Assembly: GCA_025677605.1 (NCBI GenBank)
Contig: GCA_025677605.1_4110.1
Length of the DNA: 64,000 nt
Reading direction: 5' to 3' (one strand)
Source of the DNA: a phage
Shown here: in pieces, positions 59,188 to 60,802 of the stretch
Layout of the letters: each line of letters opens with the position of its first letter
Numbering within the stretch: the stretch's first letter is position 1
Program-made: the position numbers and the translations under genes
Notes under the pieces: model-generated
Told to the model about the DNA's origin: nothing
Databases searched by the model: none
What the model saw: only the letters and a program-made list of their open reading frames with translations

Positions 59188-59289
59188 TGAATGTTCCTTA
59201 ATAGTTAGTCATCCATCTCTTCGAGATGTCTGTTCGCTTCTAATACTACGTATTCTACGCGAATGATTAATAACTGTCAAGGACTTTTA

Positions 59290-59800
59290 ATATTGACGGG
59301 ATTTGAGGAAGGGATTTTTCTTCCCCCCGCTGGGAGGGGAATTTGACGCTGATGGTATCAGAGCTATTGCATTGAAGATTACTCTTAATGAGTACGAAAG
59401 CGGGTCATCCTGTTTCTCTCTACTTCAGTTTCATATGACGGTCTACACTTTTAAACATAGTGTATCTTCATTAAGTATCTATGCAATCAAATACTTAATG
59501 TGAGTACTCAAATTTTGGACGCAACTTTCCTGTACAAAATTTGATAACTCTCCCTTAGATAATTCGTAAGGTGTTATCCTTATATGTCTATCGAGGAACC
59601 ACCAGCCATCCTAACGTGGTTCTTTATAGTGCCGCATTGCCGTGAGGGGTTCATAATATGCCCACATCTGACGGGTTTCTTCTGCACTTCGCACTGCTGG
59701 ACTGCTCAACTGCCCTCTACATTTTCGAGTGGATCAGGTTCATGTCATCCATGCCAACAGAATTGTACAATATCATTGTATCATGAACATCCATTTTGTC
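59290..59800 (-). other. ORF-free structured region downstream of the sigma-factor gene (candidate non-coding RNA)
   Basis: no ORF on minus strand; local inverted repeats such as GAACCAC..GTGGTTC; bounded by a terminator module and a promoter. Confidence 0.3.
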
Positions 59801-59804
59801 CCAT

Positions 59805-59838
59805 AAAAAAAAGGGCTGACCTAAGTCAACCCTTTTTC
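59805..59838 (-). promoter_or_regulatory. terminator module after sigma-factor gene
   Basis: A8-GGGCTGACCTAAGTCAACCC-T5. Confidence 0.6.
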
Positions 59839-59839
59839 T

Positions 59840-60802
59840 TTAGAAATCTTCGTATTCGTACCCTTTTTCAAGTACTATTTTTTTAAGCTTTTGAATAGCT
59901 TCACTATATTTTCGGTGCACAGATGAACGGGACTTAACAATGTTTCCTTTATCATCAACATATCCATTATCAGAAATTTCACGAAGGGTTTCTGCTTTGT
60001 AATCCCCCAGACCATGAACACGCATGATAATTTCTCGTTCTTTAGTACTCAATTCGTCAATGATTTCTGTGATTGCATAACGTAATGGATTACAAATGCT
60101 ATCAACATTAAGGTTATAATCACGAGCAGATGAACTCAGAATATCCCCAAGGGTTCCGTCTGAATCTGAACCCAGTTGTGCATCAAGAGTCGTATATGCA
60201 TTCTGGTATAACAAACAGTTCTTAACGTGCTGAAGCTCGATACCAGTACTCTCAGAGATTAATTCTGGTGTAGGTCGCTTACCGTGTTCACGTTGATATG
60301 ATTCATTAAATCGACGTACTTGGATGTTATGAACGCTCATATAACGTGGTAAGTACACCATGTAATTTGCATCTGAACTTTCATTATACATAGTCATATA
60401 AACGGACGTTGTTGCATATGTAATGAATTTGACATTCTTACTAAGATCAAAGGTTTTAAGTGCTCGCATAAAACCTTCTACACCATATGCAATTTTATCT
60501 TCAAACGGAATATAACATGTACACTTTGAAGCAACATCAACGATCATACCATAGTTATAACGAAGTAATAGGTCAGTGTTCTTTTTTACATTAATTCCAG
60601 CACGAATCTCTTCGATGATGGATTCATTAGTCACACCTACTGGACGCTTGAGACTAATGTTACTTTTACTACGAACTTTATGTGGAATATCATCTTCAAT
60701 AACTTCTGATGGTTCAATTGCTTCCAATGGATTGACTTCTTCATTCGCAAAACATTCATCCAGTACTTCTTCGGAAATTGCGTTTAAGTCTAGTTTCTTC
60801 AC
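59840..60802 (-). CDS. sigma-70 family RNA polymerase sigma factor (320 aa)
   Basis: region-2-like AYGVEGFMRALKTFDLSKNVKFITYATT and region-4-like HTH TLREISDNGYVDDKGNIVKSRSSVHRKYSEAIQKL. Confidence 0.65.
   Translation of the reverse strand: MKKLDLNAISEEVLDECFANEEVNPLEAIEPSEVIEDDIPHKVRSKSNISLKRPVGVTNESIIEEIRAGINVKKNTDLLLRYNYGMIVDVASKCTCYIPFEDKIAYGVEGFMRALKTFDLSKNVKFITYATTSVYMTMYNESSDANYMVYLPRYMSVHNIQVRRFNESYQREHGKRPTPELISESTGIELQHVKNCLLYQNAYTTLDAQLGSDSDGTLGDILSSSARDYNLNVDSICNPLRYAITEIIDELSTKEREIIMRVHGLGDYKAETLREISDNGYVDDKGNIVKSRSSVHRKYSEAIQKLKKIVLEKGYEYEDF

Follow-up and report, generated by a model that had tools for sequence, protein, structure and literature searches.

A candidate family of large, pseudoknotted noncoding RNA genes in RaK2-like jumbo phages

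What is encoded by a stretch of phage DNA that lies downstream of a sigma factor gene and holds no open reading frame (ORF)? We asked this of positions 59188 to 59839 of a 64,000-nucleotide (nt) stretch of phage DNA (NCBI GenBank assembly GCA_025677605.1, contig GCA_025677605.1_4110.1), here called the window. A first-pass annotation of the window had described an ORF-free stretch bounded by a terminator and a promoter, all of which are present, and had proposed 59290 to 59800 as a noncoding RNA (ncRNA), a proposal that covariation, a promoter of the element's own, and terminators in its paralogs, as read from the sequences, strongly support. On balance, we favor the view that a gene of its own, at 59294 to 59768 of the minus strand, specifies a large, pseudoknotted, trans-acting ncRNA of an undescribed family. 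We regard it as a stand-alone RNA gene because it is conserved without coding, has 14 helices with compensatory changes, occurs as dispersed paralogs, and has its own promoter and same-strand terminators.

Escherichia phage A4, an Asteriusvirus with a 355-kb genome, matched the 2.1-kb segment around the element at 99.8% identity, and the RaK2-like jumbo myoviruses PBECO4, 121Q, phAPEC6, and G17 matched it at ∼82%. In this part of the window, every annotated gene is encoded on the minus strand.

Conservation, fold, and transcription signals of the element

The ORF-free stretch was 92% identical across Asteriusvirus in a sensitive blastn search, compared with an average of ∼82% for the wider segment that includes the flanking genes. 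A core of ∼440 nt was ∼70% identical in Cronobacter phage GAP32, Pectobacterium phage CBB, Serratia phage BF, and phages of Erwinia, Yersinia, Xanthomonas, Salmonella (Munch and 7t3), and Klebsiella, and the same figure holds for Mimasvirus, Eneladusvirus, Munch-like, and Xanthomonas phages. Across copies, the element measured ∼480 to 560 nt. Outside Asteriusvirus the homologues were always intergenic, in unannotated DNA or beneath dubious small ORFs. No conserved ORF was found in 59188 to 59839, where the longest stop-free stretches differ in frame and strand between homologues, and gap runs in the alignment did not keep to multiples of three (lengths modulo 3 of 1, 2, and 0 in 815, 313, and 216 runs, respectively). 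Judged by these patterns, the element does not code. A mini-ORF that follows the Shine-Dalgarno-like UAAGGGAG on the minus strand of GAP32 and BF was rejected, since it is not conserved and, as read from the alignment, falls in a segment absent from several paralogs. In existing records, part of the element is flagged as a repeat_region (UE-S1), and small ORFs are annotated over it in several others.

We searched for helices in a strand-neutral way, as stacked, compatible, covarying column pairs, and counted them on MAFFT alignment A2. The covariation-supported structure comprised 72 pairs in 14 helices (Table 1). In this structure 92.3% of the cells were paired, compared with 72.2 ± 0.5% in shuffled alignments, none of which (0 of 500) reached the observed value. 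Changes on both sides were present in 56 of the 72 pairs and amounted to 628 cells, versus 187 ± 11 in shuffles. The covariation score was 0.50, versus 0.07 to 0.11 when partners were slid by 1 to 3 columns, a control in which 33 to 47% of cells rather than 92% were paired. Many pairs occurred as three or four Watson-Crick types, almost without exceptions. By these compensatory base changes, which exceed the controls, the element is predicted to encode a structured RNA. Because helices cross one another, the fold contains three or four pseudoknots. The 5′-3′ closing helix of the single-sequence plus-strand fold was without support in the alignment. Long unpaired stretches were invariant in all aligned paralogs (in plus-strand letters, GCGGGT, ACGGTC, CTCCCTTA, TATGTCTATC, GCCGCATTGCCG, and ACGGGT).

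Every copy also carries a distal module (alignment A2 columns 19 to 135), in which two TGACGnGAT direct repeats flank an invariant C6-loop-G-rich hairpin. Few bases of the element are better conserved than those of these repeats and this hairpin. The module may be the 3′ tail of the RNA or a DNA or regulatory site.

The promoter check covered 47 distinct copies. At the sigma-proximal border, 43 of them carried T(T)GRRAC-N∼15-TGnTATAAT on the minus strand in strict form, and the others kept TGnTATAAT or TATACT. In the window, this predicted promoter (P1) reads TGGGACA...TGATACAAT at 59803 to 59775. It fits the TGAAACG/TATA class of promoters known from CBB and GAP32 and reported upstream of DNA-synthesis genes in CBB (PMC5259590). 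A promoter of the P1 type is retained in the copy designated B, which has no directly following minus-strand gene, and in both of the bacterial copies described below. Only three other matches to TGRRAC-N-TAnAAT occur in the window, at 21204 to 21232 (minus), 46801 to 46828 (minus), and 12844 to 12874 (plus).

Immediately before P1 lies the intrinsic terminator of the sigma gene, whose hairpin module recurs in the window and which has a T-run on the plus strand too, hence its bidirectional look. The terminator and P1 appear to be separate signals, the sigma-proximal promoter being the one predicted to drive the RNA. For instance, in GAP32 copy C the predicted start lies inside the terminator hairpin of the upstream gene; read-through transcripts would stop at this hairpin and P1 transcripts would not. 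At the other end, families B and D and both bacterial copies have an inserted minus-strand hairpin followed by U6-8 after the second CGUCAG motif, and in families B and D this terminator precedes the distal module. A plus-strand reading of the inserted hairpins, which would be preceded by A-runs, would have no rationale. Downstream of the distal module, most copies have a hairpin and a TTGAC promoter for the next genes. A promoter and a terminator are thus predicted on the strand of the RNA itself.

Counts of G·U against A·C pairs (at variable pairs, plus-strand A·C, that is, minus-strand G·U, outnumbered G·U by 85 to 38), minimum free energies (MFEs) of 45 copies, and z-scores were not decisive for the strand and were dropped in favor of the promoter and terminators. 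On the basis of those signals, we read the RNA as a minus-strand transcript that would start near 59768 and whose core would extend to about 59343.

Copies in phage genomes and bacterial chromosomes

Motif scans of IMG/VR together with an nhmmer profile yielded 45 distinct full-length copies. A looser IMG/VR motif scan and a scan of genome contigs returned mostly chance matches, and the true ones were retained by nhmmer. Full-length copies were found by nhmmer at three to five loci per RaK2-like jumbo phage genome, at about 35, 99, 178, and 341 kb in GAP32, about 30, 93, 175, 259, and 335 kb of the 357-kb genome of Serratia phage BF, about 24, 93, 260, and 335 kb in Yen9-04, and about 90, 193, and 327 kb in 121Q. 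Within the window, blastn, the motif search, and nhmmer found no second copy. In every Asteriusvirus, a second locus is 75% identical to the Munch copy. Paralogs within a genome were 57 to 73% identical, a divergence comparable to that between orthologues of different genera; the duplications must therefore be ancient, with every copy retained since.

All copies within a genome share one orientation. Copy B, which lies between the baseplate-hub and EndoVII genes, keeps this orientation against the direction of the local genes. The copies were also spaced more evenly than random points (chance of about 0.005 in BF, with five copies, and about 0.014 in 121Q, with three), a statistic to be read with the caution that orthologous positions are inherited and the independent events few.

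The other genomes contradict a view of the RNA as a local appendage of the sigma gene: in GAP32, CBB, BF, and Munch the orthologous copy adjoins other genes, and the genomes carry three to five dispersed paralogs. Adjacency to the sigma gene looks like an incidental local arrangement specific to Asteriusvirus. The analyses here gave no evidence of a link between the RNA and sigma or TraR/DksA function.

A full-length copy (350 bits) was also present in the chromosomes of 2 of 5,426 complete Escherichia coli genomes. The E. coli copy belongs to an island of roughly 11 kb, located between ybaA and ffs, that also has integrase and recombinase genes, an IS3 element, and the PADLOC candidate system PDC-M45 (DuOB plus DUF488). 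Further, an intact copy in an Enterobacteriaceae metagenome-assembled genome (MAG) lies between the thiM/thiD operon and the gene for a CI-like repressor (helix-turn-helix plus S24 peptidase), a site that gene content suggests is the edge of a prophage-like element. The E. coli and MAG copies both keep the promoter, the terminator, and the invariant motifs. A plasmid search returned no match to the element.

Some copies are associated with endonuclease genes. Homologues of the 270-aa HNH protein encoded in the window directly follow the copy designated A in many genera but do not follow the other copies. We considered this protein as a partner of the RNA and rejected it, as it adjoins copy A only and shows no relation to the 257-aa protein encoded next to the copy in E. 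coli. Its reading as an RNA-guided nuclease was likewise set aside, since the match to guided_IscB is weak (3.5e-4) and spans the HNH motif only. In Escherichia virus TH47 (MT446416.1; extracted locus L276, positions 865 to 1562), an insertion of ∼700 bp separates the promoter from the core. On the RNA strand, this insertion holds an ORF for a 214-aa protein resembling homing endonucleases, and the middle of the TH47 copy is also replaced by divergent sequence. By analogy with T4 biology, the HNH and TH47 endonucleases are probably free-standing homing endonucleases that take a highly conserved gene as their target.

Known RNAs and possible functions

A search of the whole window against Rfam 15 at gathering thresholds gave no match. 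With E values of up to 10, positions 59100 to 59900 returned only terminator-like noise, and six other copies searched at E values of up to 0.05 gave no match to the element, the thiamine pyrophosphate riboswitch and signal recognition particle RNA being found elsewhere in the loci, as expected. ARAGORN detected no tRNA or transfer-messenger RNA in the window or in 16 copy-bearing loci. We found no earlier description of the element in the literature, in a search that did not cover a 2026 preprint on the mining of noncoding elements. The family is apparently one of large structured ncRNA genes not described before.

The closest parallels are GOLLD, ROOL, OLE, and HEARO, ornate bacterial and phage RNAs of unknown function for which cryo-electron microscopy has been reported (PMC12286853). 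Like them, the element is longer than 400 nt and has many covariation-supported helices, pseudoknots, and long invariant unpaired stretches, is carried by phages and mobile elements, and has come to light without a known function, as they did when discovered. Unlike them, it adjoins no tRNA genes and resides in virulent jumbo phages of enterobacteria, and by Rfam it matches none of the four in sequence or structure. To our knowledge, three to five diverged, co-oriented, regularly spaced paralogs per genome are not a feature of any of these RNAs. With the group I introns of T4-like phages the element shares its size (250 to 500 nt), a pseudoknotted architecture, and an association with homing endonucleases (the HNH gene by copy A and the endonuclease ORF inside a peripheral region of the TH47 copy). 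In contrast to such introns, it interrupts no gene, being intergenic in all contexts, and has its own predicted promoter and terminator; identity with a group I intron was rejected because of this intergenic location throughout and because no match to Rfam Intron_gpI (RF00028) appeared even at E values of up to 10. PA5oct, a distant jumbo-phage relative, has ORF-free regions of 240 to 620 nt designated ncRNA001 to ncRNA004, two of them highly transcribed (PMC7318152). The element is likewise an ORF-free region in a related jumbo phage, and homology to ncRNA001 and ncRNA002, the two of the four that were compared, was undetectable by nhmmer and motifs.

If the element is a stand-alone RNA gene, host RNA polymerase would start about 7 nt downstream of TGATACAAT, near 59768 and just past the sigma terminator, and would proceed leftwards to transcribe roughly 425 to 475 nt. 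The RNA would adopt a compact multidomain fold, in which the invariant single-stranded stretches may touch a conserved partner or make up a catalytic or tertiary core. It would act in trans and be abundant, with its dosage provided by several gene copies with strong promoters. A trans-acting RNA is the best-supported option because the element is a discrete promoter-terminator unit, has an architecture like that of ribozymes or ribonucleoprotein (RNP) RNAs, and is retained in unrelated contexts. We infer that a folded RNA acting in trans is the most likely function, above an origin preprimer and a cis-acting leader.

Several points tell against this interpretation. A single alignment served both to derive the helices and to count their pairs, and the expression, the ends, and the strand of the RNA are all deduced from sequence signals. 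Pair statistics are nearly symmetric between the strands (92.3% canonical on the plus strand versus 90.7% on the minus strand), three invariant G·U pairs exist on the plus strand only, and the single-sequence fold is slightly better on the plus strand (z = −2.4 versus −1.6 on the minus strand). The window copy has no canonical terminator after the core, and the RNA may run into the downstream genes. In families B and D, the distal module (59294 to 59342 in the window) lies beyond the terminator and is unaccounted for by a simple RNA-gene model. Moreover, the copies are evenly spaced and uniformly oriented, which points to a role at the level of the chromosome over a purely trans-acting one.

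The last of these points would be explained if each copy were a replication origin, a reading to which we assign a small but real chance. By analogy with ColE1 RNA II, the T4 oriF/oriG R-loop origins, and mitochondrial CSBII, the folded, promoter-driven RNA would form a persistent RNA-DNA hybrid, nucleated by an invariant rG6:dC6 near the distal end, that primes the leading strand for a T4-like replisome. As in ColE1 RNA II and T4 oriF/oriG, about 450 to 550 nt separate the promoter from a conserved distal DNA segment downstream of it, the transcript is predicted to fold, and a G-run in the RNA faces a C-run in the template; as in T4, several sites are dispersed over the genome, and the phage has a T4-like replisome. 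An origin would fit with the spacing, with the single orientation kept even against local gene direction, with the class of P1, and with the invariant C6 run and TGACGnGAT direct repeat at the distal end. The size of the element agrees with that of RNA II, which is roughly 550 nt, and an AT-rich stretch follows copy B. On the integrase island, an origin could let the island replicate during infection. The likeness is, however, circumstantial, consisting of spacing, orientation, promoter class, and the G6/C6 run, and the spacing reflects few independent events. Unlike in ColE1 RNA II and the T4 origins, terminators precede the distal module in many copies; they look efficient and are found in half of the copies, which would be odd for a primer. 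The invariant single-stranded motifs and several pseudoknots go beyond what known primer RNAs need, and the T4 origins lack conserved RNA structure. An antisense promoter like that of ColE1 RNA I is not evident in the element, which has no sequence similarity to either system. AT richness past the element is not general (mean, 0.69, with only copy B at 0.77 to 0.80), and the element is on no plasmid.

We consider it rather improbable that the RNA is instead a cis-acting leader, the 5′ part of longer transcripts that would mediate processive antitermination (as HK022 put does) or form a regulated terminator for the genes that follow. Same-strand genes do follow three of the four GAP32 copies, the window copy, and the E. 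coli island copy, and the missing terminator after the window's core would suit such a role. A modified polymerase could pass through the many terminator-promoter cassettes of the region, and candidate mutually exclusive pairings near CTCCCTTA...GGTAAGG...CCTTAT, read from the alignment, could make a switch. Yet copy B, with no gene on its own strand immediately after it, keeps its promoter and full structure, the genes downstream of most copies have a sigma-70-type promoter of their own, and strong predicted terminators close the RNA in families B and D. The element is also far larger than antitermination RNAs; we know of none of its size.

Distinctly unlikely, in our view, is a functional RNA on the plus strand, antisense to the flanking genes in the window, or on both strands as a convergent sense-antisense pair. 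It would draw on the plus-strand G·U pairs, canonical-pair fraction, and MFE z-score given above, on a −10-like hexamer (TAATAT, TATTAC, or TAATAC) that adjoins the TGACG border, and on the MAG, where the element comes after the CI-like gene on the plus strand. The hexamer, however, mostly ends in C and lacks a −35, the A6-8 runs before the inserted hairpins make sense only as minus-strand terminators, and a near-consensus minus-strand promoter is present in essentially all copies. Finally, a DNA-level repeat without RNA function, such as a mobile cassette for regulation or a module for recombination, is very improbable, as is an overlooked gene for a small protein: the repeat_region label in UE-S1, the small ORFs annotated over the element, and a genome rich in shuffled promoter and stem-loop cassettes speak for such readings, but double-stranded DNA sites cannot explain nested and crossing long-range helices with compensatory changes, no frame is conserved, and old paralogs (57 to 73% identical) still keep the structure.

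Neighboring genes and significance

The first-pass annotation had also identified two RNA polymerase-targeting proteins, and formal domain searches bear out both families. The ORF at 59840 to 60802 is a divergent sigma-70-family protein with regions 2 and 3 and a putative region 4. Its Pfam matches were to Sigma70_r3 (2.9e-11, residues 161 to 225), Sigma70_r2 (5.1e-5; 23.4 bits, just below the cutoff of 24), and Sigma70_r4 (0.0023; weak, at 17.8 bits against a cutoff of 24.1). In NCBIfam, RpoD_Cterm matched best (2.3e-26 over residues 79 to 283), followed by the RpoS, SigB, and FliA models, all under their curated cutoffs. Of the two segments claimed to be recognizable, region 2 was thus recovered, by Pfam and by the span of RpoD_Cterm, while region 4 gave only the weak Pfam match, together with RpoD_Cterm and RpoS alignments that extend to residues 283 to 318. 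Because region 3 is present, we class the protein as RpoD/RpoS-like and reject an extracytoplasmic function (ECF, group 4) identity, in line with RpoD, RpoS, and SigB as the best NCBIfam models. The homologous gene already bears a sigma label in A4, PBECO4, 121Q, and most records. The 86-aa protein at 52958 to 53218 is, by its sequence matches, a member of the DksA/TraR family with a C4 zinc finger (Pfam zf-dskA_traR, PF01258, 1.5e-7; NCBIfam NF008243, 99.8 bits, above the cutoff of 96). Both genes are ordinary family members that were annotated before; the new part is the ncRNA family.

The suggestion that the sigma factor serves cassette promoters lacking a −35 found no support. The window has 45 matches to the sigma-70 consensus TTGAC[ATG]-N16-18-TAnnnT, nearly all on the minus strand, and in many cassette promoters a −35 TTGACT is embedded in the terminator hairpin (e.g., TTGACTTCGGTCAGCCCTTTTTGCTATAAT); these promoters are therefore not obvious targets of a new sigma specificity. 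We take the cassettes to resemble the "promoter-early stem-loop" cassettes of T4-type phages.

Two differences from the A4 record were seen nearby. Where the window has the intact 270-aa HNH gene, the A4 GenBank record has only the 87-aa ORF A4_184 (extracted locus L001, positions 2594 to 2857), so that either the annotation or the gene itself differs. The 92-aa ORF at 57041 to 57319 (minus) corresponds to A4_187, which carries the label "sigma-70 family RNA polymerase sigma factor" there and is much too short to be a complete sigma factor.

Table 1. Positions of the element, its helices, associated signals, neighboring genes, and bacterial copies (window coordinates unless an accession is given)
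Feature	Position	Strand or numbering	Basis or remark
ncRNA element, this copy	59283-59783	minus	nhmmer envelope
Structured core of ncRNA, ∼425 nt in window copy	59343-59768	minus	Helix finding and covariation
Conserved distal module: C6/G6 hairpin and TGACGrGATTTG motif, both invariant	59294-59342	minus	Alignments
Promoter P1 (predicted): TGGGACA-N13-TGA-TACAAT, −35-like TGRRAC and extended −10	59775-59803	minus	Sequence prediction
Intrinsic terminator of sigma gene; stem 59813-59820/59825-59832, minus-strand U-run 59812-59805	59805-59838	minus	Read from sequence
Sigma-70-type promoter (predicted), TTGACA-17-TAGAAT, 11/12 positions, for downstream small genes; outside RNA	59252-59280	minus	Sequence prediction
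Helix, pseudoknot	59366-72/59481-87	plus-strand numbering	Crosses hairpin 59469-78/59491-500
Helix	59373-77/59423-27	plus-strand numbering	Covariation
Helix	59380-83/59391-94	plus-strand numbering	Covariation
Helix	59396-400/59416-20	plus-strand numbering	Covariation
Helix, pseudoknot	59404-08/59435-39	plus-strand numbering	Crosses 59373-77/59423-27
Helix	59469-78/59491-500	plus-strand numbering	Covariation
Helix	59566-70/59579-83	plus-strand numbering	Covariation
Helix	59584-87/59634-37	plus-strand numbering	Covariation
Helix	59594-601/59617-24	plus-strand numbering	Covariation
Helix, pseudoknot	59628-32/59684-88	plus-strand numbering	Crosses 59584-87/59634-37
Helix	59691-93/59703-05	plus-strand numbering	Covariation
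Helix	59694-97/59756-60	plus-strand numbering	Possibly crosses hairpin 59691-93/59703-05
Helix	59710-12/59735-37	plus-strand numbering	Covariation
Sigma-70-family RNA polymerase sigma factor gene, 320 aa, divergent, RpoD/RpoS-like	59840-60802	minus	Pfam, NCBIfam
HNH endonuclease, 270 aa	57962-58774	minus	phrog_35175 1.4e-148; weak Pfam HNH match
DksA/TraR-family C4 zinc-finger protein, 86 aa	52958-53218	minus	Pfam, NCBIfam
Sigma-70-type promoter examples (predicted)	42465-42494, 43888-43917, 44617-44646, 47085-47114, 10848-10876, ∼40 more	nearly all minus	Pattern match
E. coli LR-29-1 copy	NZ_AP027515.1, about 3478968-3479558 (extracted locus L275: 7662-8252)		Second genome, NZ_CM130020.1
Enterobacteriaceae MAG copy, intact	CAUSEC010000004.1 (extracted locus L223: 6420-7035)		nhmmer

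Few large RNAs with many conserved, pseudoknotted helices are known, and these have proved to be ribozymes, RNP cores, and, recently, self-assembling RNA cages. In dozens of sequenced coliphages, the element is without annotation or is wrongly labeled as a repeat_region or as small ORFs. Its three to five co-oriented, evenly spaced paralogs and its capture by an island with candidate defense genes are unusual among known RNA classes. Tentatively, and with less confidence than we place in a trans-acting RNA gene as such, we propose that it is a new functional class of RNA at the scale of the whole chromosome, either a folded origin or R-loop RNA placed every ∼60 to 130 kb in one direction or a large ribozyme or RNP RNA supplied at high dose, and that bacteria have captured copies on integrative or defense islands as a decoy, sensor, or hitchhiking device against these phages. 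Since PBECO4, 121Q, phAPEC6, and Sharanji grow on E. coli K-12, the element is directly testable, and its features may bear on how replication starts or how transcription is organized in phage genomes of 350 kb.

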